Made by a program: the position numbers and the translations under genes
Shown: one piece after another, positions 38,421 to 54,990 of the stretch
How the letters are laid out: every line of letters starts with the position of its first letter
How positions within the stretch are numbered: position 1 is the first letter of the stretch
Origin: a virus
Taxonomy: Duplodnaviria; Caudoviricetes
Reading direction: 5' to 3' (one strand)
DNA length: 64,000 bases
IMG/VR virus record: IMGVR_UViG_2744054517_000003
Location: 1 to 64,000 of that record
The notes under the pieces: model-generated
Database searches by the model: none
What the model was told of the DNA's origin: nothing
The model's input: only the letters and a program-made list of their open reading frames with translations

Positions 38421-38467
38421 AAGATGCTGGTGAAGGGAATTGAACCCCCGGCCTACGCATTACGAGT
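38421..38467 (-). repeat. att core copy 1: 3' half of tRNA-Thr(CGT)
   Basis: 47 bp identical to 54944-54990; reverse complement has anticodon loop CTCGTAA, T-arm GGTTCAATTCC and acceptor strand CACCAGCA; 5' half absent. Confidence 0.95.
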
Positions 38468-38727
38468 GCGTCTAATCTCCGCTATCGTCCCGAAACCTAG
38501 ACGTAGCCTATGACGGACATTCAGACGATGACCTACGGATTGTACGAAGCCCTACGGTTTGGTATTTTAATACATAGTGATTATACCACGGGGATATTAT
38601 CGTAGCAACGCACTCATAAACGAAGAAAAGACACCTGAAATTTTCCATTCTATCATTTAAATTATACAACCTTTGCTGTATACTGTTTATTGTAATAAAA
38701 ATACATCACCAGTTTTAGGAGTAACTA

Positions 38728-39255
38728 ATGGACCCACAACCAACGCCACAACTTCAGGAGAATAGCTGCGACGCTATCCTAGATACAGCTAAAACTTTAT
38801 ATAATGATGAGATAGATCGCTTTAAACAAGTTGAAGCCAAAACCGGTATCACGTTAGGTTTTGTCGGCGTTATTTTAGGTGTTTTTATAACCTATATTGG
38901 GACCTCTAAACTTCAAATGGATATGGTCCCCTACGTTGTATATTCGTACTTTTTTAGGTTATCTATTATAGCTCTGTTAACTGCGAGTTCTATCAAACTA
39001 ATCAATGCAATAAAAGTCGGGAGTTTCCAACAAATTGACATAAATAATATAGTAGATGAAGACTTTGCAAAAGAAAGACCTGCTAAGGTTAAACTGGACA
39101 TCGCTGCTACTTATCAAGAAACTATCAATCAAAATTCAGAAAAAATTGATGAGAAGAATGATAATTATAACGTTGGACTTAATTTAATGATGTATGGATT
39201 CGTACTGTTTATTGTCTATATTATACTAGAGGAGATTATTAAAAATGCCAGATAA
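38728..39255 (+). CDS. three-TM membrane protein, satellite cargo (Pycsar-effector-like topology)
   Basis: E..R...VEAK.G..LGFVG, two TMs, soluble loop, C-terminal TM; AT-rich. Confidence 0.6.
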   Translation: MDPQPTPQLQENSCDAILDTAKTLYNDEIDRFKQVEAKTGITLGFVGVILGVFITYIGTSKLQMDMVPYVVYSYFFRLSIIALLTASSIKLINAIKVGSFQQIDINNIVDEDFAKERPAKVKLDIAATYQETINQNSEKIDEKNDNYNVGLNLMMYGFVLFIVYIILEEIIKNAR

Positions 39256-39400
39256 AGAAAATCGAAGTAAATTCTCTAACAATTCTTCTGACACACCAAG
39301 AAGTAGGGGGACAAAGCCTGTGAAACGCGATGCCTTTTCTCAGAATAATAGTAATCCCGCTAAAGGAACACCTCGTCCTAATACAACTAAAAAGAATTAA
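39245..39400 (+). CDS. small disordered 51-aa peptide coupled to the membrane gene
   Basis: GAGGAG RBS; MPDKENRSKFSNNSSDTPRSRGTKPVKRDAFSQNNSNPAKGTPRPNTTKKN; followed by a hairpin at ~39407-39449. Confidence 0.5.
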   Translation: MPDKENRSKFSNNSSDTPRSRGTKPVKRDAFSQNNSNPAKGTPRPNTTKKN

Positions 39401-40167
39401 ACGAAGAAAAAGCGCCCGCCCACGGATCATAACCGTAGACGGGCGCTTTATAATTTCCGGAAGTTTATTTTGATACGCCGATTTCTCACGCACCTGATTT
39501 CGGGCCGCGCGAGGGGGCGCTTGGGGGTACAGCCCTCGCAATCTGCACGCAAAAAGACGCTCATTCATTCGCTTTTGATAGCGTAAATAAGCGTTATTTT
39601 CGATCGGACACACGCAGCCATACGTACCACCAGTCGCCTTTTATGCAGCGGATATTCACGGACATGTGCACAAAATCCATATTATGCGAATATGTCTGCG
39701 CCCGGAACCCGCGCCATTATGCGGTTGATACCGCGTTGCATAAACGCACCCTATGCACTGTATATACATTACCAGTGTATAATCCGTATAAATCCCGTAG
39801 CTACGCGGCTTTCCGTCCTCTCCGGCCACCTACCCGCTGGTAACATATGCAGCTAAATACACTGGTTCTCTCGTCCGTTATACACTGCATATGCAGCCGA
39901 AACGTATGACGGATTTACGCTATACCCGAAAGTTTCCGTAGCTATAAAACTGCGAGACTCCGCGCCCCAACTGGTCCTTCAGCTATTAGAATGCTTTCGT
40001 ATTCGAAAAATTCCAGAGCGGTCGCGCGTCAGGAGCGTCGTGTAGGAAAATTCGCTATAAAGTACACTTTTGGGACACCATAACTAGCCGCTAAAGCCCT
40101 ATATACCGCTGATATAACGCCATTTCACCCGATTTCGTGTACGGTATGAATCCGAACCGACTCACGC

Positions 40168-40470
40168 TTAAATAAGGCCGAGCATTCGGCATCTCTCCGT
40201 GATTTCATCCGCTGAAAGCGCGAGCCAATCTACCGCACTCCTATGTCGTCGACGTATTGCGGATATAAACCCTCGGTGTACCTTCTCGTATTCTTTATTA
40301 AAATCCTCACGTTGCCTCCAGCGGTACAGTGTCCGCCTATCAACTCCGCATAGAGATGCAATTTCATCCATCGTGTCATGTACGCCCTTGCGCGCCAGCA
40401 TTTCGATTGCAAGCCTATGACGCTCGTCCAACGGTGGCCGTGCGCGCCTTTTGCGTTTCTTATTCGCCAT
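40168..40470 (-). CDS. terminase-small-subunit-like HTH protein (phBC6A51 type)
   Basis: LDERHRLAIEML...TMDEIASLCGVDRRTLYRWRQREDF. Confidence 0.7.
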   Translation of the reverse strand: MANKKRKRRARPPLDERHRLAIEMLARKGVHDTMDEIASLCGVDRRTLYRWRQREDFNKEYEKVHRGFISAIRRRHRSAVDWLALSADEITERCRMLGLI

Positions 40471-40527
40471 TGTAACGCAACTCCTTCCGTATGTAAAAAA
40501 AGAGCGAGCCGCAGCCCGCCCGTAAGT

Positions 40528-42609
40528 TTAATTCGCCCATGCTTTAACGAACGCGCGCGCGATCTTTTCGATGTCTGCGTCTTCACGTATGGTCGTACCG
40601 TACATATTGACTACGATACCTCCGTTGCTGCCCTTACCACGTTGTTGATCGCGCCATTCAGACGCCTCGTGCTTCGTTAAGACCGCCTCATCACGGTGAA
40701 GTGTAGCGGGATAACCGTTCATAGGTACCCGGTCAAGTCCGCCCGCGTGCTTATTGCCAAGCTTTTTCCGCCGCTCCGCGTTATGTGCCGCCAACTGGTC
40801 GTCTGGAACACCGCCCATCCACGTAGGCAAGTGCTTATTCGTCCAGTCAAAGAATCCATTCACAGCGTCGCTCGATCCAAGAGACTTCGCTCCCTGACCA
40901 ATGTAAACATTAGATGCACCACCGCCTGCTCCTATTGCAGCCCCTGCGAGGGCACCACCAGGACCAAACAGACCGCCGACTATTGCCCCGCCGCCACCGT
41001 TAAGCACCGCACTAGCGATAGGGTCATTAGCGATCGCTTTCTGTATCCCGTCAATTAATCCAGACCCAAGTTTTAACCCGACACTCACAAACGTTGGTAC
41101 GGCTGCTTCGAGAGACGATGCCATGAACTGAACGACCTGTGCTGTCAATTTCTCTACAGCGTCTCGCCCCCCACCATTCCACCAATTGGAGAACGCCTTT
41201 TCTATCTTTTCGAAGGCGAACGCGACTTTACTTTTAATGTCTGGAAGCTTCGTAAACTCAGGGTTATTAATAAAGTTATCCTTGAGGAACGTTTTAGCGG
41301 TTGTTACTGCGCTCTCTACCGCTGCGGTAATCTGCGGAGTGTACTTAACGACAAAGTCTGCGGCAGCTTGCGCGAGCTTCTTCAGGATCGGCATCGTCGG
41401 AAGCAATGCGGAAATTCTTAAAGTTTCCAATGCTCCTTCGAATTGTTCTACCGCACCCGCTGCGTTATCCATCTTCTTGGTTGCGACTTGTAACGCGGTG
41501 ACATTCGCCATCTCCTGTTGAAATTTCTTAACGCCAGCCGCGCCTTCTTTGAAGAGGATGTTGCCCGCACGAATTGCATCGGACCCAAATATCTGATGCA
41601 AGTAGTATTGACGTTGCTCGTTCGTAAGCTTCCCGAATCGGTTCTTCAGCAAATCCGCTACTTGCGCTAGGTCTTTAATCTCACCCTTTTCGTCGTAAAA
41701 CGCAGAGTGTACGAGATTACTCGCGGTTAAGAACTTCTTCGTTTCCTTCGTGGCCTTAGCCGTACCGACCTTGAGTCCCGTCTGCGCTGCGACGTATTTC
41801 TCGATATCCTTCGTAACCGCTTGGACGGATGTGCCCGTTGACTTAATGCCCTTTTTGGACATAAATGCGAGGGCATCCGTGGTATTTACGGTCAAGAGAT
41901 TGAAGTCCTCGAACATGCCATACGCCTTGTCCGTTGCTGGAACCAAGTTGGACAGGAATGTCTTCAGCGACGTACCCGCGTCTGCGCCCTTCAGCCCGTT
42001 ATTCGCGAACAAGCCTAGCGCTGTATTCGTGTCCTTAAACGACTGCCCTACGCCATCAGCAACGGAACCGACCGCTGCCAACGAGTAACGCAAGTCGTGC
42101 ACGTCCGTAGCTGACGCATTCGCAGTACCCGCCAAGATATCCGCAGCCTGCGCCGCAGTTAAGCCGTCTTTCTTAAACGAGTTAAGCGCGGTCGACATAA
42201 TTTCCGCAGATTCCGCTAGGCCGAGTCCACCGGCCGTCGCCAAGTTAAGCGCTGCGTTAAGACCGCCCGCTTGGACTTGCGCGGTGGACATGCCCGCTTT
42301 CAACAGTTCCTCGATCCCTTGCGCGGCTTCGAGCGCACTATATTTCGTTAATGCGCCTTGTTGGAGCGCGAGTTGTTGCATGGCTTTCGTCTGCGCGTCT
42401 GTCGCGCCCGTTAACGCCTGAATCGTAGACATCTGTGACTCGAAACTCATCGCTTTCTTTACGGAGTCAGCCGCGAACGCAATCCCCGTAGTCGCAACAC
42501 CAATCCCCGTTGCTGCCACGCCAAATTTCGTCATATTACCGAATGCCTTACGTAGCGGGCGGCTCAAGTCATCTACTAAACGTAAGTGTCCTACCAGATC
42601 GAATGAAAT
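40528..42609 (-). CDS. satellite tape measure protein (TP901-type core), ~693 aa if started at ATT
   Basis: A.SFESQMS.I.ALTGAT, TKYSALEAAQGIEELLKAG, GLKGADAGTSLKT, IFGSDAIRA, KMDNAAG; C-terminal HAGGLDRVP..GY.A.LHRDEAVLT. Confidence 0.9.
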   Translation of the reverse strand: MSFDLVGHLRLVDDLSRPLRKAFGNMTKFGVAATGIGVATTGIAFAADSVKKAMSFESQMSTIQALTGATDAQTKAMQQLALQQGALTKYSALEAAQGIEELLKAGMSTAQVQAGGLNAALNLATAGGLGLAESAEIMSTALNSFKKDGLTAAQAADILAGTANASATDVHDLRYSLAAVGSVADGVGQSFKDTNTALGLFANNGLKGADAGTSLKTFLSNLVPATDKAYGMFEDFNLLTVNTTDALAFMSKKGIKSTGTSVQAVTKDIEKYVAAQTGLKVGTAKATKETKKFLTASNLVHSAFYDEKGEIKDLAQVADLLKNRFGKLTNEQRQYYLHQIFGSDAIRAGNILFKEGAAGVKKFQQEMANVTALQVATKKMDNAAGAVEQFEGALETLRISALLPTMPILKKLAQAAADFVVKYTPQITAAVESAVTTAKTFLKDNFINNPEFTKLPDIKSKVAFAFEKIEKAFSNWWNGGGRDAVEKLTAQVVQFMASSLEAAVPTFVSVGLKLGSGLIDGIQKAIANDPIASAVLNGGGGAIVGGLFGPGGALAGAAIGAGGGASNVYIGQGAKSLGSSDAVNGFFDWTNKHLPTWMGGVPDDQLAAHNAERRKKLGNKHAGGLDRVPMNGYPATLHRDEAVLTKHEASEWRDQQRGKGSNGGIVVNMYGTTIREDADIEKIARAFVKAWAN

Positions 42610-42954
42610 TTAAATCGCCGTCCTTTCGATCGCACGCACCAGGAGTTCCAACACCTTGTAAACCGCCATAGCCGGTCCTACTACGCCTTTTCCAGCCCGG
42701 ACAGCTTCGTCTACGTCGTCGATCGCGGGAAGTAGCTTCCTCATGCGGAAGCCCATTGCTTGTACACGCACCATGTCTGAAGCTTCAAACTTTGCGGCCA
42801 CTTCGTTCCATATCGCTGCCTGCTCAGGAAAACTATCTGCGAAATCATACGAACCGGGACGCTTGTGCGTTAAGACCGATTCAATCAACCGAATTATGGG
42901 CGTTACGCGCTCCATATCTGCGAGAACGCTGTCCGGTAGTTTAGACTTGCTCAT
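42610..42954 (-). CDS. hypothetical protein between chaperone and tape measure
   Basis: 114-aa ORF with AAGGGGG RBS. Confidence 0.65.
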   Translation of the reverse strand: MSKSKLPDSVLADMERVTPIIRLIESVLTHKRPGSYDFADSFPEQAAIWNEVAAKFEASDMVRVQAMGFRMRKLLPAIDDVDEAVRAGKGVVGPAMAVYKVLELLVRAIERTAI

Positions 42955-42967
42955 TCGTATTCCCCCT

Positions 42968-43506
42968 TTATCTTTGTTGCGCCGCCTTCGCTTCCCGTTC
43001 GAACTGGAGCATCATCGACGCGTACATAAACATCCGGTGTCTCCGGTCTTTCGCGTAAACCTCGTCGGGCGGGATGCCGTGACGCTGAAAGATTTCATGC
43101 AGCACGTACGATTCCCCGCCCGACTTAATTAGTTTTTTGCGTCTTGGATAAGCTCCGAGTCTCCCACGAATCCGGATAGTTTAAGCAACGCCTGTACGAG
43201 GCGGGATTGTTCGCCAGGTAACAACGCCTTCTTGACGACGTCAGCCGAATCGGACGCCTCGTAATGATCTTTCAATGCCTTATCGTTAAGGTCTGGGTCA
43301 GCTACGGCTTTAACGATGAGCAAACGGTTAAATAGCGACTCGTCGACACTGCCGTCCTTACCCGTCGTAGCCTGTGCGCGAGCCTTTTCGAGTGTGTCTT
43401 CATCCAGCGCTTTGACGATAAAATCCGTACCCAAACGAGGGATGTACACGCCTTCCTGTAAATCCGTGGTTGCTCCGAGTAGTGCGTCAAGTCTGCTTGT
43501 TGTCAT
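42968..43506 (-). CDS. XkdN-like tail assembly chaperone (43129-43506) with -1 frameshift extension to 42968
   Basis: V.DPDL.D..L...Y.A....DVVKKALLPGE...LSGF...DAKN; AAAAAAC at 43132-43138; -1 frame KLIKSGGESYVLHEIFQRHGIPPDEVY...QQR*. Confidence 0.85.
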
Positions 43507-43580
43507 ATAATCAGCCTCCGTATGGTATTTTTGGAAAACAAAAAGAGGCCCCGAAGGACCTCCGTGATATCGCTATTTAC

Positions 43581-44678
43581 TTACGCGGTCAGCCCTTTGA
43601 TACGGGCGTGTGCCTTCTCTTGCTCAAACTCTAGTGTGTACTCTCCGACGATGATACCGGACTGATAATCGCCTTTGACGCCAAGATACGTATGACCAAA
43701 GGAGCGGTTGCCGAGTGGTCGAATCTTAATCCGATTCGCGTCGATAAACAGAATCTCGTCTGGCTTCAGGTTATCGTTTAACACGACTTGGAACGTACCG
43801 AAGTCATTGACGATGTGGTCGACTTTCTGGCCGCGACTATTCTCTGCTTGTGTCAAACGGATTTGCGTAAATGCCATGTCGCTAATTGCGCGCTTCTGCA
43901 CGGCAGGAACAACGAACGTATAGCCTGCGCTTCCTGTGGCAAAACCGCCCGCATTGTAGACTTGTTGCGCCACGTCATCGAGCAGCTTTTTCGTAACTGG
44001 TCCGCCCGCAGTGGTCACGTTAGTCTCGATGAAGCTACGGATGCCGCGCATTGTGCGCATATCCCCGCTATCAAATTTGCGACCGCCGATAATGGCTTTC
44101 TCAAGTTGGAGCGCAAGTTCAAGCTGCTTCTTCGCCTTCTCATATGCGTAAAGGCCGCTTGACCCTATGCCATACTGCGCAACTGCTTCCGCCGAACCGG
44201 TTACACTAACCGTGTCTTCAAAAATCTGCGTTACGTTGTCTACTTTTGTTTTGGACTTATACCGTGCGTCGCGTGCATCAGCACCTTCTCGGCTGTCTCC
44301 ATAAAGAGACTCAATCGGAGCATCTTTTGCAATTGCAGCAGCCGTTGTGCCACTATGCCCCCGGACAACCGTAATCTTATTCGCGGTAGTATCCACAGAT
44401 TGGATCAGTACTAGCTCATCGCCTACCTCCGCAATCGTGTGCGGTCGGAATGGCTCGGTGCTGGCTACTTTGATCTCCGTTGCGTCCGCAGCAGCGGCGG
44501 CAGTGACCGTCGTTCGTGTCGCAAACATCGCATCTTCTAGCCAAACGTGCGTAGTTGATGTAACTGGCTGGCTGAAGCCGAGTAAATTCAACATCGGCGT
44601 TTGTGTTGGGTTAAGTAGCAGAATTTCATCAGTTACAGATTCACGTTTACCTACCAAGTCAGTTGTATAAATTGTCAT
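43581..44678 (-). CDS. major capsid protein (DUF5309/SU10-like)
   Basis: GKRESVTDEILLLNP.QTP, H.WLED, N.TQIF...VSV.GS, LEKA.I.G, R.M.GI..FI, I.GEYTLE...EKAHA. Confidence 0.85.
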   Translation of the reverse strand: MTIYTTDLVGKRESVTDEILLLNPTQTPMLNLLGFSQPVTSTTHVWLEDAMFATRTTVTAAAAADATEIKVASTEPFRPHTIAEVGDELVLIQSVDTTANKITVVRGHSGTTAAAIAKDAPIESLYGDSREGADARDARYKSKTKVDNVTQIFEDTVSVTGSAEAVAQYGIGSSGLYAYEKAKKQLELALQLEKAIIGGRKFDSGDMRTMRGIRSFIETNVTTAGGPVTKKLLDDVAQQVYNAGGFATGSAGYTFVVPAVQKRAISDMAFTQIRLTQAENSRGQKVDHIVNDFGTFQVVLNDNLKPDEILFIDANRIKIRPLGNRSFGHTYLGVKGDYQSGIIVGEYTLEFEQEKAHARIKGLTA

Positions 44679-44693
44679 AATAAATTCCCCCTA

Positions 44694-45146
44694 TTAATTT
44701 TGTGATTTAAGTTTACTTTTGAGTTCCATATACTCAACCATGTCTTCCGGACGCCCGGTACGCTTAGCCTTTTCCGCTGCTGTCGCAAGTCGCTGTTCAC
44801 TCGTCTTTTCGGCTCGCTCACCATAATTGGGCGCAAACGGGCCTCCTATAGAACGCGGTTCCCTTGGTTTAGCGGCGGAGGTAAACGCGGTCAGGATTTC
44901 ATCAATCCCCTGCGCTTGCCCTGCGTCATCAAACGTTACAGCGGAAAGATTTACGATACCCGCCAGTGCGTCCGGATCGTCAATCCCTGCTGCTCTTGCC
45001 TTCCGATAGAAGGCGTTACTGACACGTTGACTGTGTAGCTCCGTTGTCAACGTTTCGAGCCGCTGTGTGAGCTCTGCGCGTTCATCCTCCCACGTTGGTT
45101 CTTGCGTTTGTTCTTCCGGAATCTCCGGATTTGTTACGTCCTCCAC
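44694..45146 (-). CDS. capsid scaffolding protein
   Basis: acidic N-terminus, coiled coil, NAF...A..AGI, C-terminal AAEKAKRTGR.ED...Y..LK; directly upstream of MCP. Confidence 0.75.
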   Translation of the reverse strand: MEDVTNPEIPEEQTQEPTWEDERAELTQRLETLTTELHSQRVSNAFYRKARAAGIDDPDALAGIVNLSAVTFDDAGQAQGIDEILTAFTSAAKPREPRSIGGPFAPNYGERAEKTSEQRLATAAEKAKRTGRPEDMVEYMELKSKLKSQN

Positions 45147-45251: not shown

Positions 45252-45533
45252 TCACGCTGATTCCTCTGTTACGGTAATTATTTGTAGTGCTCGATCGGCT
45301 GCACCCGGAACGTTTGAATGAAGCCGAATACTCTTACCGACAAACAATCCCTGCGCAACGACCTCGTCAAAAGCGGAAACTATCGCGCCAGCTCCAGCCT
45401 CGATTGGATCATCGCTATCTTCGGGAATCGGTTTACTACCTTGTAGAATCGGCCACCCAACGGATGAGTCAACGTAGACAAAGTCACGGCCAAAGTTCCG
45501 CTCATGCTCAATCGTCGGTAATCCCTTGCTCAT
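45252..45533 (-). CDS. hypothetical protein
   Basis: 93-aa ORF with GGGGAG RBS. Confidence 0.5.
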   Translation of the reverse strand: MSKGLPTIEHERNFGRDFVYVDSSVGWPILQGSKPIPEDSDDPIEAGAGAIVSAFDEVVAQGLFVGKSIRLHSNVPGAADRALQIITVTEESA

Positions 45534-45753: not shown

Positions 45754-45984
45754 TTAAAGCGCCAGTTTAGTTGATTCCTTTGCTCGCTGAATTGCAGCTA
45801 AAACGTCGTCTCCCGTTCCGAAAACCTGCGCGATCTTGATTCGCAGGTCTCGGGAAACCGTTCGACGGCCGTTTTCAACGTCTGATATGCAAGACTGACT
45901 CACGGCTAAAGCCTCCGCGAAACTTGCCTGCGTCATGCCGACCATAACGCGAATGCCACGAACTCCCGTTCCGTCCATTATCAC
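45754..45984 (-). CDS. XRE-family HTH protein
   Basis: MTQASFAEALAVSQSCISDVENGRR. Confidence 0.85.
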   Translation of the reverse strand: MIMDGTGVRGIRVMVGMTQASFAEALAVSQSCISDVENGRRTVSRDLRIKIAQVFGTGDDVLAAIQRAKESTKLAL

Positions 45985-46059: not shown

Positions 46060-47019
46060 TTAGGCGGAAATGTGGACAGTACGGGGCTTGCGGCATTCTA
46101 CAAACTCCTCTGTCAATGGTTGTTCGTACATGTTATACGTGACTACTGGTCCCCACCATATGGAGTGTTCATTGCCCTTGTATTTGTTCCGGTTACTCGT
46201 CCACCTATATTCCCCATCCAGGTAACCCGCGTTCTCAGTTCCCTTCTTATCTACGAGCTGCGCAGTATTCTTTCGACCGTGCCCTTCCTTCCGCTTCTTC
46301 GCATCAATCATATTCGCAATTTTCTTTGGATTTCCGAATGACCGCTCAGAGCGCTCCTGTAGGTCCTCCATCTCCTGGGGATTGTAGAAACCGTACTCCA
46401 TTTGCGTGCGATTTCGCTCACCCTCAAGTTTGACAGTTCCGTATCTGTCGTGGCGTTCCCACAGCGTCTTAGATACTCGGCGGCAACTAGGTCCGCAGTC
46501 CACTTTACTCGCGCGGCCCTCGAAAGGGTAACGGCATACACGACATAGCTTGACGCCCATTTTCTCGGCGATACCCTCTGCGTCAGCCTCACAGTAAATC
46601 CGTACATTGTGCTTCCTCATGAAGTCTCGCGCGCCCTCCCCTGGCGGAACATCAACGTCACGATCACGAGGTTTGTCGTATGGATCGCGTAAAATTGATA
46701 ACCCGTTAACGTGATCCTCAGCGAGAACATAATCCGCCAGCCGTTCCAAGCGCTGTTTATCGAGCCGCGTCCGAAACCTGCTGTCACCGCCTATGTGAGC
46801 ATCGAAATAATAAGCGTCATATAATTCGACCATTGTCTCCGCTATCTTCAGCCTCAGCTCAAGCGGATGCTTAGCGTAGGCCCGGTAGTTGGCACGTGTC
46901 CAGTTCGGGAACAATTCGCAGGAGTCTCCAGAATAATCATATCTGTCTACGTCTGGCGTAACGATGAGCTCAAGTTGTGGGCTATGTTGGTACTCAACTA
47001 ACTTTTTGGCTGCTTCCAT
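46060..47019 (-). CDS. phage protein with C4 zinc-finger-like motif
   Basis: LERLADYVL; CRVC..PF......DCGPSCR. Confidence 0.65.
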   Translation of the reverse strand: MEAAKKLVEYQHSPQLELIVTPDVDRYDYSGDSCELFPNWTRANYRAYAKHPLELRLKIAETMVELYDAYYFDAHIGGDSRFRTRLDKQRLERLADYVLAEDHVNGLSILRDPYDKPRDRDVDVPPGEGARDFMRKHNVRIYCEADAEGIAEKMGVKLCRVCRYPFEGRASKVDCGPSCRRVSKTLWERHDRYGTVKLEGERNRTQMEYGFYNPQEMEDLQERSERSFGNPKKIANMIDAKKRKEGHGRKNTAQLVDKKGTENAGYLDGEYRWTSNRNKYKGNEHSIWWGPVVTYNMYEQPLTEEFVECRKPRTVHISA

Positions 47020-47222: not shown

Positions 47223-47334
47223 TTTCTCTTTTACGTATTTCTCTTTTACACCTTTCTCTTTTTACCGTGTGATCTGATCATACTAGGCGTGATACGATCT
47301 GACCGTACTTACCGTAGTGTGATCTGATCGTACT
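47223..47334. repeat. iteron-like repeats, candidate replication origin
   Basis: TTTCTCTTTT(T)AC at 47223, 47238, 47253 (15-bp period) and GATCTGAYCRTACT at 47271, 47296, 47321 (25-bp period), just downstream of rep-like genes. Confidence 0.75.
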
Positions 47335-47860
47335 AAGCGGAGTGACGGGCGTTTCGGCGTGTTACCGAACCATAAATACTCAAGTCCGGCTCAATTACCG
47401 TTCCTTCCTCGTCAACGATGTATCCGTCATCAGTGATTCGCGGGCAGTATGACGGGAAATACCATTTGAAGCGCCGTGTACCCTCGTACCGGGTAGCTGT
47501 GCGAATAATTCCATTGGTCTCCAGAATATCCGCAAGCAATTTAATCCGCGAGCGGTCAATCCTAAGCGTAGACATCAAGGTCTCATACGATATAAAGCAC
47601 GCCCCAAATCTGTCGTTAAGCGTTCCGTCGCTACGGAGATGGTTTCCATCAATATACGATTGCAATGTAAAGTAGAATGCCACGATATCCCTAATTTCCG
47701 GTTTACGCTGCCTACCTGCGTACACGATATCGAGCGTTTCATTAATAATTCGCGGGAATACCTTACGTACGAGGTCGCGGTTGTAAACCTCAAACCCGCG
47801 AGGGTCATCAAGAAGAGATACCTTATCGTTGGGAAGCGGATTACGGTTTCTTTCGGTCAT
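47333..47860 (-). CDS. putative replication protein (winged-helix initiator-like)
   Basis: FGACFISYETL...LRIDR..IK....ILETNGII. Confidence 0.6.
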   Translation of the reverse strand: MTERNRNPLPNDKVSLLDDPRGFEVYNRDLVRKVFPRIINETLDIVYAGRQRKPEIRDIVAFYFTLQSYIDGNHLRSDGTLNDRFGACFISYETLMSTLRIDRSRIKLLADILETNGIIRTATRYEGTRRFKWYFPSYCPRITDDGYIVDEEGTVIEPDLSIYGSVTRRNARHSA

Positions 47861-48489
47861 TTCGACATCTCCTCTATTTCGTATTTCTCGTAAAATTCCG
47901 CATACGTCAGCGACTCAAGCGGTTCGTATATGAGCTTGTTCGGAATGCGATCGGACTTTGTGACGTTGAGCAAACCGTAACGGCAAAGCGTAGCCGTGTG
48001 CTGGCGTATTTTGTACGGAGATAGCCCCGTTTGCGCCTCTATTTCGCGTTGATTTAGCCACGTTTTACCGTATAATCGGTGGCTCGGCTTGTTTTGGCAC
48101 CAGGAACGTAAATAACCGTAAAAGCCCGCCGTTTCCACGGTAAAAACTTCGAGTTTCGGATACAGCCGGTAAAGGATGACAGGGACCTTAACGAAGCGAT
48201 TATCGGTTTCGTGCGAGATTACTAAATCTACGCTCTCCCATTGCTCCGTAATCTTCCTAATCAGAGTTCGGACAATTCTCCTATGCTCCTGGGTTTTCGG
48301 CGCGACAATAAATCCTCCTTGGAAATCCGTAATTACTTCATCATCACAAGATATTGTTAGTTTGAATACTCTACTGTTCATGATCCCATGAGTAGAAGGG
48401 CTATCGGATATTTTTGCCCCAAAATCATAGGACCCTATCTTGCCGCGGTACCAATGGAGCTCATTTGCCTTTTTAATTTCAAATTCCAT
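47857..48489 (-). CDS. putative replication initiator with C-terminal winged helix
   Basis: FVKVP..LY, FYGYL, W..QREI...TGLS...I......L..YGLL.V.K. Confidence 0.6.
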   Translation of the reverse strand: MEFEIKKANELHWYRGKIGSYDFGAKISDSPSTHGIMNSRVFKLTISCDDEVITDFQGGFIVAPKTQEHRRIVRTLIRKITEQWESVDLVISHETDNRFVKVPVILYRLYPKLEVFTVETAGFYGYLRSWCQNKPSHRLYGKTWLNQREIEAQTGLSPYKIRQHTATLCRYGLLNVTKSDRIPNKLIYEPLESLTYAEFYEKYEIEEMSK

Positions 48490-48560: not shown

Positions 48561-49007
48561 TTAATACGTAAAGTAATACTCTCCTCCAGATTTCTCGCAT
48601 AGCTCAATAGCGAGGTCTACGTTAAGATCAAGGCACCCTGTATCAATCTCCGCTACCTTTGTATACTCCTTCTTTCTAATCTCAATCTTCCCGGTGCCGC
48701 CGAGTTCTTGGTCAATTAAATAATCTGCGTTCTGAAAGGCTCTGCTTTCCTCGCACACGATCTCGTAAAGTTTAAGAGCGAAGCACATCTCGTATGCTTT
48801 TTCAATGATGTTGGAAGATCGTACCGGCCGGCCCATTTCGAAACGACGAAGCGTACTTGTACTGATTCCGAGTTTACAAGAGACTTCTTCGAGCGTGAGT
48901 CCATCCGCCTGACGCCGCTCCTTAAAACGCGCCCCCTTCTCCGCCCATTCTCCGGCTTTCTTAGCTACGTACTGCTCTCGTGTCAACAATGCATTTGTCA
49001 TAATCAA
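48561..49007 (-). CDS. XRE-family HTH protein
   Basis: GLTLEEVS.KLGISTSTLRRFEMG. Confidence 0.8.
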   Translation of the reverse strand: MIMTNALLTREQYVAKKAGEWAEKGARFKERRQADGLTLEEVSCKLGISTSTLRRFEMGRPVRSSNIIEKAYEMCFALKLYEIVCEESRAFQNADYLIDQELGGTGKIEIRKKEYTKVAEIDTGCLDLNVDLAIELCEKSGGEYYFTY

Positions 49008-49530: not shown

Positions 49531-49552
49531 TAAAAACTTTTTTCGTTATTTC

Positions 49553-49578
49553 TGAAACCAACGGAACTCACGTTCGTA
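49553..49578 (+). promoter_or_regulatory. ECF-sigma-type promoter TGAAAC-N16-CGTA
   Basis: exact match to the B. subtilis sigmaW consensus, with A/T tracts upstream; no ORF downstream. Confidence 0.5.
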
Positions 49579-49589
49579 TTACTGGATAT

Positions 49590-49930
49590 AACAAGCAGAC
49601 GATCGGTGCCTGAACCGGATTTACCGGCCGATCGTCCGAGGATGAAAAATCTATGTGAACTACGCCTGCCTAACGGATATTGCCGTATCCGGACGTAGGA
49701 ATTATCGAAGTCGGCCGGTAGTTGGGACGTTGGCGCGTCCTTTCACTACCGACCGGGATTGCCGAGCATTTGGCGCTACTCAGCATTAAAGCAGCGACCT
49801 GTTAGCGCAGGCCGAGCGTCCGCATAGCGACCTCTCCGATTGACGTCGGAAAGTACGGACATTTGATTGGACCGCTCGTTGGCGCGAGGCGGCCGACCTG
49901 GTAGGGTGTTAAACCGTCTCCTCCCCATTG
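49590..49930 (+). ncRNA. candidate structured non-coding RNA with repeated TTGGCG/TTAGCG-loop hairpins
   Basis: GACGATCGG/CCGATCGTC stem; GGACG-TTGGCG-CGTCC, CCTG-TTAGCG-CAGG, CTCG-TTGGCG-CGAG; no ORF. Confidence 0.45.
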
Positions 49931-49971
49931 AATGCCCGAAATGATTGGCGTCATTTCGAACAAACGTAGGT

Positions 49972-50334
49972 TCATTGGAGAACCTGAAACGGAAACTCTC
50001 CGACCATATTATTGAGGACGTCTTGCGTCAGCCATTCGATGACATCACGGCCATGCAGTTTGGTAACGATCTCCGGTATGACTACAGCCGGATCTCGCGT
50101 GACGTTGGTTGCAAGTCTAACGCTAGACGTGTTTCGGTTTTCGATATAAAACCGATTAATGCCCGTCTGGTATATCCGCTCAACCTTTGATAGATAGACG
50201 GTACCCTCCAGTACAAAAAACGCATATCCCGGTTTGACGAGGAAGCCCTCGCTCATGTCGTAATCGAGGTCGTCGTCTTCCCATACGTGCAAAATAACGA
50301 TCTTTTCGAGAACAGAGATACCATCCATACTCAA
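49972..50334 (-). CDS. hypothetical protein
   Basis: 120-aa ORF overlapping the upstream stop, GGAGG RBS. Confidence 0.55.
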   Translation of the reverse strand: MSMDGISVLEKIVILHVWEDDDLDYDMSEGFLVKPGYAFFVLEGTVYLSKVERIYQTGINRFYIENRNTSSVRLATNVTRDPAVVIPEIVTKLHGRDVIEWLTQDVLNNMVGEFPFQVLQ

Positions 50335-50531
50335 GCGCCTCCATTCGGAAATACGTTGTTAAATGCTGTATCTAGTTCTTTTAACGTCTCAATTCGTTCG
50401 GCATCGGTGAAGTGCGGACTTTCTAATACGTTGCCGACCGCGAGAACATAGAACCGAAACGCGATCATTAACGCCTCGCCCGTCGTTTCGGAACCAAGCC
50501 GATAATCCGTAAATATTTCCAAGTACGACAT
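50331..50531 (-). CDS. small hypothetical protein
   Basis: 66-aa ORF, GAGGTG RBS. Confidence 0.55.
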   Translation of the reverse strand: MSYLEIFTDYRLGSETTGEALMIAFRFYVLAVGNVLESPHFTDAERIETLKELDTAFNNVFPNGGA

Positions 50532-50624
50532 TACGTCAACACCTCACGAGCAATTAATACGACTGCGTAGATGAATTTTAGGACTGCGACGATACGCTTG
50601 CGATTTTTACGCGATAATACGATG

Positions 50625-51113
50625 TTACGCGTAGTTTATAAATTGCTTACTGCGTTCAATCTGGACGCCTCCCTTCCCGACGATGAATCCGAGTTCCTTC
50701 ATAACGTCCATTGACAGCGTTAAGCTACCGAGCGGTGACCGCCGACTGACTCCCGCTGTCTTCCAGAATGCACGCGGCTGTATGACGAGTTCCTGATGCG
50801 TACCGACGTACCGAACTATGTAGTTCCCTGTGATCGGATCGAGTACGTAGCGAACTTGAGCCGGAGTAACTAGCGGGCGTACAACACGGAAGACTTCGCG
50901 CTTCATTTGTGCGTCTAATTCAAAGCCGAGTTCGACGAGCTGTGCCGGAGTAGCCTCAACAATGTCACCGTAGAGATACGGATTAGCTTGCGGTATAATA
51001 GTGAGGAATAATTCCGATGTAACGCGGAGTTCTTGACGTGAGCAGCCGCTTCCGACCGTGAGGATGACGTTACTTTCGCGACGATTACGGATGAAACCTA
51101 ACGTGATTGACAT
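50625..51113 (-). CDS. hypothetical protein with internal two-fold repeat; first gene of the repressed operon
   Basis: AGGAGG RBS; two QEL...ELGF units. Confidence 0.6.
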   Translation of the reverse strand: MSITLGFIRNRRESNVILTVGSGCSRQELRVTSELFLTIIPQANPYLYGDIVEATPAQLVELGFELDAQMKREVFRVVRPLVTPAQVRYVLDPITGNYIVRYVGTHQELVIQPRAFWKTAGVSRRSPLGSLTLSMDVMKELGFIVGKGGVQIERSKQFINYA

Positions 51114-51211
51114 ATGATTGCGCCTCCTAGCGGAATATATAGGATGAATTGCGTTGATGCTTCGGAACAGTACGATGTTGCTCGGGGTAAAGATGAAACT
51201 TTTTGCGTTCG

Positions 51212-51284
51212 ATTACGTATTTCGTAATTTAACTATAATTACGTTTTTCGTTATTGTCAACACTTAAATTACGTTTTTCGTATT
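51212..51284 (-). promoter_or_regulatory. sigmaA promoter with three palindromic operators (satellite switch)
   Basis: minus-strand TTGACA(51260-55)-N17-TATAGT(51237-32); ATTACG-N5-CGTWWT at 51212, 51238, 51268, the middle one filling the spacer exactly. Confidence 0.8.
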
Positions 51285-51324
51285 TATATTCTGCTGTGGT
51301 GTTTAAGAGAAAGAGGGGGAAATT

Positions 51325-51570
51325 TTGAGTAATAGGACTCTCGTCTGTGATTTGAAAAATCTTTTACTTGAAAAAGGTTGGGAGCAGAAGAAGCTATCGG
51401 AATTAACTGGTATTCGAGAGGCGACAATTTCGGAGTTAGTAAGAAACAAGAATAAAATGTTCCCACGTCAGGTACTAGAAAAAATTATTAACGTACTGGA
51501 AATAGACGATATAACAAAGCTAATCCGCATTGAGTACATATCCCAAGGTGCCAAAGAAAGTACTGATTAA
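51325..51570 (+). CDS. XRE/Cro-C1 HTH repressor
   Basis: QKKLSELTGIREATISELVRNK; divergent from the operator-covered promoter. Confidence 0.85.
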   Translation: MSNRTLVCDLKNLLLEKGWEQKKLSELTGIREATISELVRNKNKMFPRQVLEKIINVLEIDDITKLIRIEYISQGAKESTD

Positions 51571-51763
51571 ATGCAAAAGAGCCGTTAACCATACGGCTCT
51601 TTTTTTTGCGTGGATTTATCGAGAGATTCGTTAAGGAATACTATGTCGAAAAATATTGTAATTCTACATGCTTGACCCAAGTAACTCATTTTTGGTATAA
51701 TTTTTTTGTCTAAAGAACAAAAAATAGATTTCCTTTAAGATTATAGATCATGGAGGTGCCATT

Positions 51764-52315
51764 TTGAATAAACCTACGCCTGATTACATTAGAGATACTG
51801 CTGTATCTATTTTGCAAGATTACGATATGGGAATAAAGCAGTCGGACCTCTGGAGAGAAGTTGAGACGTTTTTATCTGAATCTGGTTATGAAATCACTGA
51901 CCATACACTCAAGAACGCACTTTGGGACCTAGAAAAGCAACGGCCGGAGGAAGTTTTAAAGATTAAAAAATCAGCCAAAAATGTAGAACTGCACCCTTTA
52001 GACAATAATTCAGATAAACAAGACGCTTATGACGAAGCGTGGAATGAATCGCTACAGGATAGAGCAATAGGATCATTAATAAACCTTTCAGGCATGGTAT
52101 CAGAAATAACGGTTAGGATTGATTCTTCAGGTATCCATTCTAAATTAGATGAAACACAAGTGCTTTATATGAATGAATACCCCCCTGAAGTAATTGAGGC
52201 AATTACAACTCTTGGCATAGCGCTTGACCTCATGGAGAAAAGCAAAAGTGCCTTCAAAAATATAAGACACGTATGGGCTCTAGATTCCCGGAAGGCTAGT
52301 TTACAAAGGAGGTGA
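51764..52315 (+). CDS. hypothetical protein with winged-helix-like N-terminus (cargo)
   Basis: 183-aa ORF, GGAGGTG RBS. Confidence 0.6.
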   Translation: MNKPTPDYIRDTAVSILQDYDMGIKQSDLWREVETFLSESGYEITDHTLKNALWDLEKQRPEEVLKIKKSAKNVELHPLDNNSDKQDAYDEAWNESLQDRAIGSLINLSGMVSEITVRIDSSGIHSKLDETQVLYMNEYPPEVIEAITTLGIALDLMEKSKSAFKNIRHVWALDSRKASLQRR

Positions 52316-52322
52316 TAACAAT

Positions 52323-52409
52323 ATGAATGTATATGAATCACTTGCAATCATGCTACAGTTTGGACTTGTCATAATTGGTATACTTACACTGGCACAGAAA
52401 AAGCGATAG
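52323..52409 (+). CDS. putative type I (holin-like) toxin, 28 aa
   Basis: AAAGGAGGTG RBS; MNVYESLAIMLQFGLVIIGILTLAQKKR. Confidence 0.75.
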   Translation: MNVYESLAIMLQFGLVIIGILTLAQKKR

Positions 52410-52446
52410 CCTCCCCACCATGAGCTGCTACCGCACAATACTTACA
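52398..52446 (-). ncRNA. candidate antisense antitoxin RNA
   Basis: minus-strand TTGCAG-N17-TATTAT (52481-52453); GCGGTAGC/GCTATCGC-TTTTT terminator overlapping the toxin stop. Confidence 0.5.
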
Positions 52447-52840
52447 GTTTCAATAATAACGTTTAGTGTAATTACCTGCAAGACTAGGCGTAGCCCTCCG
52501 AGATTGCGTCTTTTACGTTTGTGCGTGGACAAGATAAGAACCGTAACCCTACGTATAGGCTGCGATTCTTTTCGTTTCCTGAAGTCTGCGCATCAAATAT
52601 AATTTCCAACGGTCCGTAAGATGGACGGCTCTGTCGCGACACAAAATTATCAGCTTCTAAAATCAAAAAAAAGCCCGCAATTCTCTACGTTGAGGACACG
52701 GGCTTTTAACGTTAAATTAGGCGTTTATGGCGCTACCCTTACGTGGGTATTCGGAACGGAGTTACGGCGCTTATTTGCGGTGAAATGCGATGATTAAGCT
52801 TAATAACTATGTATATATTTTGTACCACTGTCTTTCTTAA

Positions 52841-53110
52841 TTACCCTCTGTGTGCGCCCGCATACAATCCGCCCAACGCCCCGAGCACGCCACAAGCAAT
52901 AGCAGCGATCATAATTACAGGCCCTTGTATATCACGACCTTCGACCTTCTTCGTAAGGAATCCGAGAATGACCGCGATCGGAGACGTAACCACGGGAAAC
53001 CACAACAAAGAGAGTACAGCAAACGTCCATCCGAGGAACGCGAGCGCGCTACCCTTCCGTTGTTCTTGCCTTTCCGTTGGCTTGTCGCTCTTTACGACAC
53101 CGTTAATCAA
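52841..53110 (-). CDS. small two-TM membrane protein (DUF4190-like)
   Basis: two hydrophobic helices; PIAVILGF motif. Confidence 0.55.
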   Translation of the reverse strand: MINGVVKSDKPTERQEQRKGSALAFLGWTFAVLSLLWFPVVTSPIAVILGFLTKKVEGRDIQGPVIMIAAIACGVLGALGGLYAGAHRG

Positions 53111-53377
53111 ACCGAATCCCCTCCGTTAACTCACGTTTACCTAATAATACCATCGGACTAGTACGTTGTCACTAAAAGAAAAACGGACCCACCTACGCAA
53201 TCTCCCACGCAAATGAGTCCGTTAAAGTCCGCTACTTAGTTTCTTTCGTCTTTTGTTCCGCTTTAAACGTTGAGTACACGCCAGTCCCGATCAACGCGTA
53301 CGAAACGATGTCTACTCTGCACTTTCTAAGTATCTAATCGATTAGACAATTGGGATGAAATTGTGTAAACTAAAAAT

Positions 53378-53497
53378 GTAACGCATTACAAAAAGAAAAG
53401 GCCGCTAATATCGCAAGACATAGCTCGGCCCTAATCTAATTTGATTGTATTTCACGAAAAATAGCCCACATCCCTGCAAAGATAGCGGCTATTTTTT
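53378..53497 (+). ncRNA. candidate antisense antitoxin RNA
   Basis: TAGACA-N17-TAAACT (53343-53371); two hairpins, the last AAAATAGCC/GGCTATTTT-TT overlapping the toxin stop. Confidence 0.5.
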
Positions 53498-53563
53498 GCG
53501 TTTTATAATAATGACAAGTGTGGCGAACATTATCATAAGTGACAAAGATTCATACACAGTCAT
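53489..53563 (-). CDS. putative type I (holin-like) toxin, 24 aa
   Basis: GGAGGAGGTG RBS; MTVYESLSLMIMFATLVIIIKRKK. Confidence 0.75.
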   Translation of the reverse strand: MTVYESLSLMIMFATLVIIIKRKK

Positions 53564-53724
53564 GGGCGGTCACCTCCTCCCTAAAAGAGAGGACCGCTTT
53601 TTGCTATGCCTTGCTTTCTAAAAGTATACACCATCTCCACTCTCACCGCCTACTATTTTATACTGCTCTCATCTATCAAAAAAAATGCCCACCTCCGAAG
53701 AGATGAGCGTCGTTATGCGTTTTA

Positions 53725-54783
53725 TTAGCGTCTCTTTCCTGCGCGAGTCATTCCGAGTCGTGAAAGTGGCGAAAATTGTGAATGACTGTCTCGCATAGCA
53801 CCTTCGTTTACCTTGACGTACCCTTGCGTAGTCTTAATATCAGCGTGCGCTACGATCCGCTGCAAGGTGAAGAGGTCACCGCCATTAAGTAGATAGTTTG
53901 TGCAGAAGTAATCGCGGAATCGGTGCGGTGATACTGGAGTTACCTTCCGATCGATACCCACTTTGTCCGCATACTGGCTTAGTCTCTTTCGGAATTGGTC
54001 GGCTTTTAACGGATCACCGTAATTCGCCAGAAATATGAAGTCCGTATCAAAATAAGAGCGATTCTCTTCCATAAGGATAACCAACTCACGCAAAACACTC
54101 GCCGATACCGGAACAATTCGCGGCTTTCTGTTTTTGTTCATATGGCCCGGCAGCCGAATACATCGTGACGCGATATCCAGGTGAGTCGATTCCAGCCGCA
54201 ACGCCTCATTAATTCGCAATCCTGTATCTGCAAGTAACAACATAAGCGTACGGTCGCGGAAGCCCGCAAATGTATCAACGTCGGCAGCTTCGACTAAATC
54301 TCGGAGTTGTTCATCTACAATTACGCTCTTCTCTTCCGTATCCTTGCGTGGTGGCTTTAGCTTCTCCGCCGGGTCTTCTTTCATCAATCCCTCGGACATC
54401 CAAAATTTACACATTGTTTTCAACGCGCGGAGTCTTGACGCTACCGTTACGGGTGAGAGATTGCACCCTTCTACTCGCCGTTCTGCGACGCCGTCGTATT
54501 TTGTCCGTTCGTAGGACATGTAGTTCATATACTCGCGTAGAATGGCCGTATCGAGCTGGCCTACTTCATCTATCTCCGAGTGATTCTCCATAAGCCACTC
54601 CCGAAAATAACGCCAGTAACTTTGATAGTCTTCGAGTGTTCGTGTCCGTAACTTCTCCGCTCGTTTAGCGTTGAAGAATAGATCGAACCCCAAGTCAAGC
54701 CCGACGAAGCCGACCTCTTTTCCAGACCGCCCACTGCGGCGTTTAGCCGTAACAGCCTTACCCTTACGCGGATCAACTGACAT
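53725..54783 (-). CDS. int: tyrosine recombinase/integrase of the satellite
   Basis: DTGLRINE, NKNRKPRIVP, HRFRD, AHADIKTTQGY catalytic motifs; ~160 bp from att. Confidence 0.95.
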   Translation of the reverse strand: MSVDPRKGKAVTAKRRSGRSGKEVGFVGLDLGFDLFFNAKRAEKLRTRTLEDYQSYWRYFREWLMENHSEIDEVGQLDTAILREYMNYMSYERTKYDGVAERRVEGCNLSPVTVASRLRALKTMCKFWMSEGLMKEDPAEKLKPPRKDTEEKSVIVDEQLRDLVEAADVDTFAGFRDRTLMLLLADTGLRINEALRLESTHLDIASRCIRLPGHMNKNRKPRIVPVSASVLRELVILMEENRSYFDTDFIFLANYGDPLKADQFRKRLSQYADKVGIDRKVTPVSPHRFRDYFCTNYLLNGGDLFTLQRIVAHADIKTTQGYVKVNEGAMRDSHSQFSPLSRLGMTRAGKRR

Positions 54784-54943
54784 AGCAAAAAACCTCCTAC
54801 AAAATACCGTAGGAGGCTCCGTATATATCGCATTTCAGCGCCGACGTTCGTCTATTTTATCGCTAGGAAAACGTTGACCTAGCGTCTGCCTATCCGGAAC
54901 ATTCAACGAGTGACAAACGTTGATATGACGGGAAATTCTAACG

Positions 54944-54990
54944 AAGATGCTGGTGAAGGGAATTGAACCCCCGGCCTACGCATTACGAGT
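54944..54990 (-). repeat. att core copy 2: 3' half of tRNA-Thr(CGT)
   Basis: identical to 38421-38467; 5' half of the tRNA absent. Confidence 0.95.

Follow-up and report, generated by a model that had tools for sequence, protein, structure and literature searches.

The stretch of DNA analysed here (the window, 64,000 nucleotides) opens a provirus record of 107,633 bp, IMGVR_UViG_2744054517_000003, of which it makes up the first 64 kb, and holds at positions 38421-54990 a 16,570-bp element bounded by attachment-site (att) repeats. We think it rather likely, from comparison with related elements, that this element lives as an integrative satellite of phages in a Paenibacillus-type host and that it belongs to a single lineage of elements of about 16 to 18 kb. 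It encodes a capsid shell protein with a scaffold, a tail assembly chaperone (TAC) with a frameshifted extension, a tape measure protein (TMP) and a protein resembling the small terminase (TerS). Genes for the portal, the large terminase (TerL) and the outer tail were not found among its open reading frames (ORFs).

The late gene block and the virion genes missing beside it

The element lies between two perfect 47-nt direct repeats, whose copies are 16,523 bp apart from start to start, and almost all its genes are on the minus strand. A 25-nt piece of the repeat occurs exactly twice in the window, against none expected from 100 shuffles, and has no further copy anywhere in the 107,633-bp record. 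An identical att core is found at both ends of a relative, L010, and the integrase of the element is 57% identical to the one of L010. An earlier reading of the DNA, made without database searches (the sequence-only reading), had described an att-flanked element of 16.5 kb with an intact integrase, and both parts of this description stand. The features that carry the argument are these:

38421-38467: attL, left copy of the perfect 47-nt direct repeat
54944-54990: attR, right copy of the 47-nt direct repeat
53725-54783, minus strand: tyrosine integrase, 352 aa (PF00589, E = 1.4e-31; phrog_1, E = 3.5e-45)
44694-45146, minus strand: scaffolding protein, 150 aa (PF06810, E = 5e-8, 33.5 bits for a cutoff of 35 bits; PHROG head scaffolding)
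43581-44678, minus strand: major capsid protein (MCP), 365 aa, SU10 type (PF17236, SU10_MCP, E = 1.3e-86)
43129-43506, minus strand: XkdN-type tail assembly chaperone, 125 aa (PF08890, E = 3.3e-18)
42968-43506, minus strand: the chaperone with its -1 frame extension (G/GT-type pair), slippery heptamer A_AAA_AAC at 43132-43138
42610-42954, minus strand: 114-aa protein between chaperone and TMP, of no family
40528-42567, minus strand: TMP, 679 aa from the first start codon (PF10145, E = 5.7e-39; PHROG TMP families)
40168-40470, minus strand: 100-aa TerS-like helix-turn-helix (HTH) protein, last late gene (phrog_2538, terS, E = 3.8e-11; PF13022, E = 2.4e-12)

All six late genes named in the sequence-only reading were thus identified, and only the length that it gave for the TMP, about 693 aa, needs correction. 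The scaffold is a truncated one: its residues 40-146 align by BLASTP to residues 117-231 of phage scaffolds, i.e., to the C-terminal half of proteins of 228-248 aa. The slippery heptamer stands directly before the stop codon of the chaperone gene, and from there the -1 frame remains open for 54 more codons, ending just upstream of where the 114-aa gene has its ribosome-binding site. All 11 loci compared have kept both the heptamer and a homologous -1 extension (six of six satellites, three of three related full phages, and both prophages that neighbour the element in the record, called here prophage 1 and prophage 2). Given this conservation, the G/GT arrangement is real and maintained, as the sequence-only reading had supposed. 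The chaperone itself is 36-45% identical to those of three full myophages from the sampled genomes, L022, L024, and L025.

The 114-aa gene is present in all six myo-type satellites and is not found at the equivalent position in L022, L024, and L025. Its product exists as two deeply diverged alleles, with 35-41% identity, and had no match in Pfam, PHROG, or PADLOC; its Atlas scores, of at most 0.80, are at chance level. Nor is it similar to the 117-aa ORF at the same position in prophage 2 (hhalign probability 0.4%). The TerS-like protein has homologues of 92-106 aa at the same position in all relatives whose sequence reaches there. With the TerS of L024 and L025 it shares 36% identity across some 50 aa, and the top match of its profile in the PDB is 2ao9, a "phage protein" (E = 6.7e-4). 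It resembles the N-terminal HTH domain of a small terminase, and we infer from this a role in the terminase.

Among the 20 ORFs of the element scanned with Pfam and PHROGs, none matched families of portal, TerL, protease, connector, sheath, tube, baseplate, or lysis proteins, and no ORF matched a head-to-tail adaptor or stopper family. The sequence-only reading had already noted the absence of portal, TerL, and tail structure genes. Only four ORFs have at least 300 aa, those of the integrase, a 319-aa protein, the capsid protein, and the TMP, so that a gene for a portal, large terminase, or sheath would have no place in it. Because every virion gene outside the late block is missing, dependence on a helper would be the natural reading.

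Relatives, selection and the capsid lineage

The capsid protein, used as a query, retrieved eight IMG/VR loci (on contigs of 7.7-18.4 kb) and one locus in species-representative genomes, that of Paenibacillus sp. YN15. Five of these, L004-L008, have capsid proteins 91-98% identical to that of the window and share the gene order MCP, chaperone, 114-aa homologue, TMP, TerS-like gene, with the short scaffold upstream of the MCP in four of the five. Hence the relatives with at least 91% capsid identity are all small and of one layout, and full phages are met only at 51-56%, which argues, in line with the sequence-only reading, that the element is not a one-off deletion of a full phage.

The late genes are also constrained. 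The ratio of nonsynonymous to synonymous substitutions (dN/dS), calculated by the pairwise Nei-Gojobori method wherever dS was computable (up to about 1-2), is 0.03-0.08 for the MCP, 0.06-0.16 for the chaperone, 0.07-0.22 for the scaffold, 0.07-0.28 for the TMP, and 0.11-0.45 for the 114-aa gene. Judged by these ratios, the capsid, scaffold, chaperone, and tape measure genes are kept intact by purifying selection; for MCP and TMP, this is the comparison that the sequence-only reading had proposed.

Related elements are present in three isolate sequencing runs as single stand-alone contigs, of 17,818 nt (X2, X3) and 16,810 nt (X4). These runs hold relatives only (at most 0.19 of the sampled words), in the form of contigs, which cannot show circles. 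A short contig over the att region has about twice the depth of the element contigs, which is what a unit with an att copy at either end should give. The X2/X3 contig joins position 42969 to 43551 with 21 other letters between them, so that this relative is without the chaperone gene.

How far the lineage is separated from complete phages can be seen in a wider sample. Capsid homologues (E <= 1e-60) occur in 17 of 401 genomes sampled from the order, at 18 places, two of which are satellite-type (G001:C99, in YN15, with 75% identity, and G399:C2, with 61%); the other 16 have 51-56% identity. Contexts of 20 kb were inspected for five of these 16 phage places (L022-L025 and L039), and the other 11 were seen as 4-kb loci. 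The five have the layout of full prophages, with terminase, portal, minor capsid protein, long scaffold, capsid gene, and five connector-sized genes, and then either sheath, tube, XkdN chaperone, TMP, and baseplate (L022, L024, L025) or a siphovirus tail (L023, L039); Pfam confirms TerL, portal, sheath, and tube in L025, and the layouts of L022-L024 and L039 follow from BLAST and ORF sizes. Each of the other 11 has a long scaffold upstream of the MCP and small connector-sized ORFs downstream of it.

These full prophages of Paenibacillaceae resemble the satellites in their capsid protein, in the homologous C-terminal half of the scaffold, in an XkdN chaperone with the same slippery site, in the TMP (between that of the window and the 649-aa one of L025 there is 43% identity from end to end), and in the N-terminal domain of TerS. 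They differ in having TerL, portal, minor capsid protein, the full-length scaffold, connector-sized genes, sheath, tube, and baseplate, whereas the satellites have none of them. The two groups can be told apart by the length of the scaffold, which is 144-156 aa in eight of nine satellite rows and 228-248 aa in 15 of the 16 phage places; the 16th place is interrupted by the end of its contig. When 26 capsid proteins are placed in a maximum-likelihood tree, one branch (support 100/99) divides the nine satellite rows from the 17 phage rows, which represent the 16 places; the tree is unrooted and gives one split but no direction of descent. In this tree the satellite capsid genes form one lineage apart from the full phages.

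Isolated phages are more distant. A tblastn search of 50,697 phage records gave as best MCP match Sporosarcina phage Lietuvens, with 51% identity, and no Mycobacterium among the named organism groups (two groups are unnamed). None of the records covers at least 80% of the TMP, and no cultured helper candidate emerged from them. One record, KY038360.1 ("Brevibacillus phage MRSA107", 24,435 bp), is an observation apart: it has a distant capsid homologue (27% identity) and, of the isolated phages, gives the best TMP match (44%, covering 72% of the query), and it is unannotated and unusually small for a tailed phage.

The tail cassette, the helper and competing explanations

Between the capsid gene and the TerS-like gene, the relatives carry different sets of tail genes. 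L004, L007, and L008 have an additional DUF2577/XkdR-like protein after the tape measure. The distant satellites L003/L011 (YN15) and L010 have a 79-aa ORF, a TMP of 1170 or 1255 aa, and a tip or fibre protein, followed by the TerS-like gene; the tip protein in the cassette of L003 has PF06605, and a Cu_amine_oxidN1 domain occurs there in another protein, of about 208 aa. In YN15 (G001), the 1170-aa satellite TMP is 59-61% identical from end to end to the 1179-aa TMP of a siphophage, L023, that resides in the same genome, and residues 4-466 of the satellite tip protein are 61% identical to a protein of the L023 prophage, while its C-terminal 110 residues differ. A further variant, L038 (the G399:C2 place), combines the short scaffold and capsid gene with a fibre-like protein of 451 aa and a TerS, and has no tape measure. 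The constant core of the lineage, across the loci compared, is therefore the short scaffold, the capsid protein, and the TerS-like protein, and the slot between them holds parts of the tail axis or tip resembling those of a contemporary phage. Since the relatives carry DUF2577/XkdR-like or Tal-like tip proteins there, or a fibre-like protein without TMP, the slot is not primarily a ruler.

This bears on the claim of the sequence-only reading that the element has a tail-length kit producing a shorter tail, which was based on the 1174-aa TMP of prophage 1. That comparison has no basis. The satellite TMP has no detectable similarity to the TMP of prophage 1 (1174 aa) or prophage 2 (826 aa) (best BLASTP E = 0.21), and neither of these two proteins has a Pfam tape-measure match. 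Its length instead fits its own phage lineage, with 606-700 aa across the myo-type satellite family and 573-649 aa in L022, L024, and L025. At 1.6 Å per residue (the figure of PMC11838301), the predicted tails measure about 109 nm for 679 aa and 92-104 nm for 573-649 aa, compared with about 132 nm for 826 aa and 188 nm for 1174 aa. A shorter satellite tail would result only if a neighbouring prophage were the helper, and nothing that we found speaks for this.

Both neighbours are XkdN-type myoviruses, with capsid proteins of P2 type (prophage 1) and E type (prophage 2), and the satellite MCP has no BLASTP similarity to either. The chaperone of prophage 2 is 35% identical to that of the satellite and its scaffold 27%. 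The head genes of the helper-type phage L025 have no match in the 107-kb record. Neither neighbour belongs to the lineage that donated the structural genes of the satellite. As helpers, the two prophages were considered and not adopted, given their unrelated MCP and TMP, with some room left for prophage 2.

The life cycle that these data suggest would be as follows. A helper would induce the satellite, and the likeliest one is a phage with a contractile tail from the capsid lineage of L022, L024, and L025. Its own shell protein and short scaffold would build small capsids on the helper's portal, and the helper's large terminase would package the satellite DNA, steered by the TerS-like protein. 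The satellite's chaperone-loaded TMP would enter tails made otherwise of the helper's tube, sheath, and baseplate, which would be chimeric by analogy with those of the Vibrio phage-inducible chromosomal island-like elements (PLEs). In such tails the TMP would copy the helper's length and not shorten the tail. The likely benefit would then lie in tail initiation, in DNA delivery, or in escape from factors that target the TMP, and not in tail length.

The variability of the slot allows a bolder proposal, which we hold only tentatively and consider doubtful on present data. The slot could be an exchangeable tail-axis cassette, repeatedly re-acquired from the current helper, be it a myovirus or a siphovirus, in the form of chaperone and TMP, of TMP and tip protein, or of a fibre alone. 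It would keep the helper's tail length and replace the proteins that start assembly and conduct the DNA, so that particles could enter cells that exclude the helper; the 114-aa protein would perhaps be an Rta-like inhibitor of the helper TMP. If true, this would permit delivery into helper lysogens with TMP-targeting superinfection exclusion, or into hosts with other receptors.

The same genes can be explained otherwise. Satellites commonly block the assembly of their helpers, and one paper (PMC11364771) reportedly describes interference with tail assembly by systems borne on phage-inducible chromosomal islands (PICIs). The structural genes could therefore serve mainly interference or defence, poisoning or diverting head and tail assembly of the helper, with an element that spreads poorly or by other means. 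The 114-aa protein, satellite-specific and with two very divergent alleles, would suit this role, as would the orphan PycTM-like effector in cargo position described below, and the 80-aa Rta of PLE11 is described as restricting the helper through the helper's TMP (PMC11838301). We find this explanation unlikely, because the conserved G/GT frameshift, a full-length TMP with conserved ends, a matched scaffold-MCP pair, and strong purifying selection all exceed its needs. Moreover, interference and particle building co-exist in PLEs, which makes it more of an added function than an alternative.

The idea of a shorter ruler, with a neighbouring prophage (TMP of 1174 or 826 aa) as helper and satellite tails shorter than the helper's, has a precedent: TMP length sets tail length, and the TMP of PLE11, at 582 aa versus the 677 aa of its helper's, goes with tails about 10 nm shorter, as described for PLE11 virions (PMC11838301). 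With prophage 2, which is intact, as helper, the tail would be about 23 nm shorter. We regard it as quite improbable all the same. The TMP is unrelated to those of both neighbours and has homologues along its whole length in the phages of its own capsid lineage (573-649 aa), and the TMPs of the satellite family are not shorter than these; in YN15 the satellite and the co-resident phage differ by only 1170 versus 1179 aa; and prophage 1 looks defective, with a split portal gene. A decaying prophage remnant, i.e., a non-mobile deletion derivative with a few morphogenesis genes left by chance, would account for the origin of the genes in a phage lineage with the order scaffold, MCP, connectors, sheath, tube, TAC, TMP, for the few relatives with damaged genes, and for the position in a tandem array with an old prophage. 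It is hard to reconcile with the same three-deletion architecture in all five close relatives and in three distant ones with other tail cassettes, with dN/dS well below 1 at the dS values reached, with perfect att repeats and an intact integrase, switch, and candidate origin, or with a monophyletic capsid lineage with its signature short scaffold and all listed genes open. We give it very little credence.

An integrative satellite remains the reading that we favour, and comparative genomics supports it well. Several observations weigh against it. L006 is without a recognisable scaffold ORF and the capsid gene of L008 is frameshifted. The window copy is without the full-length TerS (129-162 aa) present in L005, L007, L008, and L010, which in the first three shares 50-54% identity with phage TerS. 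Among species representatives the family is seldom met, with its two satellite-type places in 401 genomes, and the 107-kb record holds no helper of the predicted type, both neighbours having unrelated capsid and TMP families.

Other genes, neighbours and known satellites

Outside the late block and integrase, the element has the following features:

51764-52315, plus strand: 183-aa protein with no assigned function, divergent from the early genes
51325-51570, plus strand: 81-aa Cro/CI-type HTH protein (PF13443, E = 2.6e-9)
51212-51285: three 18-nt quasi-palindromic operator-like repeats between the divergent HTH genes
50625-51113, minus strand: early gene, 162 aa, no family match
50331-50531, minus strand: early gene, 66 aa, no family match
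49972-50334, minus strand: early gene, 120 aa, no family match
48561-49007, minus strand: 148-aa HTH protein (PF13560, E = 2.3e-7)
47857-48489, minus strand: 210-aa protein with an N-terminal DUF7678 domain (PF24726, E = 4.8e-13)
47333-47860, minus strand: 175-aa HTH_36 or replication-initiator-like protein (PF13730, E = 0.006; phrog_270, E = 5.7e-4; weak)
47267-47339: three 23-nt iterons with 25-nt spacing at the 3' end of the HTH_36 gene, candidate iteron origin
46060-47019, minus strand: 319-aa family-specific protein with four invariant cysteines (C159, C162, C175, C179)
45754-45984, minus strand: 76-aa Xre-type HTH regulator preceding the late genes (PF01381, E = 4.2e-9)
45252-45533, minus strand: 93-aa protein upstream of the scaffold gene, 91-95% identical in L004, L007, and L008
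39398-40059, minus strand: conserved non-coding stretch of about 660 nt downstream of the TerS-like gene, with a terminator-like hairpin (about 39403-39449) at its end
38728-39255, plus strand: 175-aa membrane protein in accessory or cargo position (PADLOC PycTM, E = 8.6e-7; phrog_23273, E = 2.6e-4)

The plus-strand genes at 51325-52315 are candidates for the repressor side of a switch, and the divergent HTH genes with the operator-like repeats between them may be inferred to act as a switch of repressor type. The genes at 47333-48489 form a putative replication module. The sequence-only reading had listed a switch, rep genes, and iterons; HTH genes, operators, and three iterons are indeed there, whereas the assignment of the rep gene is weak. 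A relative, L003, encodes a 484-aa protein like primases of the archaeo-eukaryotic (AEP) type. The three early proteins (49972-51113) had no family match in Pfam, PHROG, or PADLOC, and the 162-aa one is 81-94% identical across L004-L008, with dN/dS of 0.12-0.29. The 319-aa protein has 16 homologous clusters, of which the named ones are all from Paenibacillus and all hypothetical, without Pfam domain; its profile matched no PDB sequence, and its AlphaFold model is of low confidence (mean pLDDT 56). The Xre-type regulator is conserved in L003, L005, L007, and L008. The 93-aa protein had no match in Pfam, PHROG, or PADLOC.

In L007 and L008 the non-coding stretch at 39398-40059 recurs with 86-90% identity, with indels of single bases and without a common ORF, and it carries six of the 14 GCATA motifs of the element, spaced 34-94 nt apart. 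It is a candidate packaging (pac) site or structured 3' untranslated region. Next to it, the 175-aa membrane protein looks like an orphan PycTM-like gene (a Pycsar membrane effector), with no adjacent cyclase gene. In L038, the same accessory position, after TerS, holds cargo of defence type, an AAA_15/AAA_21 (AbiEii/OLD-like) ATPase (15211-16416, plus strand). L009, a 7.7-kb satellite-related viral contig, encodes upstream of its scaffold-capsid pair a TnpB/Cas12f-like protein (83-961, plus strand) with OrfB_IS605 and Cas12f1-like TNB domains.

The genomic setting may point to repeated use of one integration site. On the minus strand, the att core resembles the 3' part, from anticodon arm to acceptor, of a tRNA-Thr(CGT)-like gene. 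ARAGORN found no intact tRNA or tmRNA in the window or the whole record, and Rfam gave nothing at the gathering threshold at the att site, only a sub-threshold tmRNA match at 38428-38502 (E = 0.0064). An intact tRNA or tmRNA gene at the att site was accordingly rejected; such a gene would lie beyond the end of the record. Abutting attL is a frameshifted integrase fragment (38024-38319, plus strand), 45-57% identical to the integrase of prophage 2, which is found at the far end of the record (106473-107633). This fragment, the position of that integrase, and the tRNA-Thr-like core would fit a tandem stack of prophage 1, the satellite, and prophage 2 at a single tRNA-Thr-like site. The portal region of prophage 1 (26639-28135, minus strand) is split into ORFs of 222 and 268 aa, the first of which alone matches Phage_portal, weakly; this suggests that the portal gene is disrupted. 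With the integrase fragment, it makes the decaying neighbour of the sequence-only reading plausible. Prophage 2 looks complete. The head module of prophage 1 also holds a gene for a thermolysin-type M4 metallopeptidase (24609-25661, minus strand; PF01447/PF02868), in an island of low GC content (0.376 at 24-26 kb), which looks like a moron-type insertion.

Classical PICIs, including the Staphylococcus aureus pathogenicity islands (SaPIs), remodel helper capsids through small Cpm-type proteins and encode no shell or tail proteins. To our knowledge, satellites were held until 2025 to steal tails whole. The Paenibacillus-type element resembles the classical PICIs in its size of about 15-17 kb, its flanking att sites, integrase, predicted divergent repressor switch, candidate origin, TerS-type gene, and cargo slot, and differs in encoding MCP, TAC, and TMP. 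The capsid-forming PICIs (known as cf-PICIs) have, according to the summary of PMC10690885, genes for protease, portal, head-tail connectors, TerS, TerL, and HNH, and no tail genes. Like them, the element is integrative and would make capsids from its own HK97-fold shell protein; unlike them, it has no portal, protease, connectors, or TerL, and it has tail genes (TAC with frameshift, and TMP).

The PLEs of Vibrio cholerae, satellites of the myophage ICP1, come closer in their tails. As the available text of the study on their chimeric tails reports (bioRxiv 10.1101/2025.01.29.635557, PMC11838301), all PLEs encode chaperone and tape measure and some a baseplate hub, and PLE11 virions contain the TMP and hub of the PLE and not those of ICP1, i.e., the tails are chimeric. 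Both systems, compared here by description, have a satellite TAC and TMP without tube, sheath, or baseplate genes and a helper that is contractile-tailed in PLEs and predicted to be so here, and the optional PLE hub parallels the DUF2577/XkdR-like protein of some relatives. They differ in that PLEs use the helper's coat protein, whereas the Paenibacillus-type family encodes its own MCP and scaffold; the TMP of PLE11 is 95 aa shorter than its helper's, whereas here the lengths match those of helper-type phages; and the hosts are of another phylum, with Paenibacillus as nearest named relatives. The gene content is more closely matched by the EPIPs, satellites of the Mycolicibacterium aichiense prophage HerbertWM, which, in the portions available of their description, carry TerS, adaptor, stopper, serine integrase, scaffold, MCP, and TMP and form small-headed particles whose tails are long, variable, and longer than those of the helper (PMC12822802, bioRxiv 10.64898/2025.12.02.691453). 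Set against these gene descriptions, our element is likewise small and unites TerS, scaffold, MCP, and TMP without portal, TerL, or tail tube. It differs in its tyrosine recombinase, in the absence of any adaptor or stopper among its matches, in the G/GT chaperone pair, and in the predicted contractile-tailed helper, and the EPIPs were isolated as particles.

The sequence-only reading had known of no satellite of Firmicutes with such a gene set, and as a statement of novelty this is out of date, given the EPIPs and the chimeric tails of PLEs. Our literature searches gave no description of the Paenibacillus family in the texts available; unrelated satellites outside Vibrionaceae that also carry tmp genes appear in Extended Data Fig. 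8 and the supplementary tables of PMC11838301, and the satellites tabulated there could include elements of Firmicutes. The family would be a Gram-positive variant that combines two recently published strategies, an own capsid shell and a chimeric tail core, and adds to them three features, namely the lack of an own portal, a scaffold whose truncation is a signature, and a tail-axis cassette that is exchangeable and fits the type of helper.

These results may have consequences for the way satellites are found. In the rules of SatelliteFinder as published in PMC10085698, tail and holin profiles are forbidden in the PICI and cf-PICI models, and a cf-PICI needs 9-11 core components; going by these rules alone, the element would be rejected or left unclassified, and elements of this kind would be missed systematically. 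With this family, satellites with chimeric tails would be known not only from Vibrio and Mycobacteriaceae but also from Gram-positive spore-formers, with one element of 16.5 kb uniting an own shell without own portal and a satellite-supplied tail core. Its myo-type, sipho-type, and TMP-free cassettes on one capsid lineage, together with the pair of satellite and phage in YN15, are natural comparisons. They could show what a satellite gains from owning its tape measure, a benefit that the available text of the PLE study states to be open (PMC11838301).

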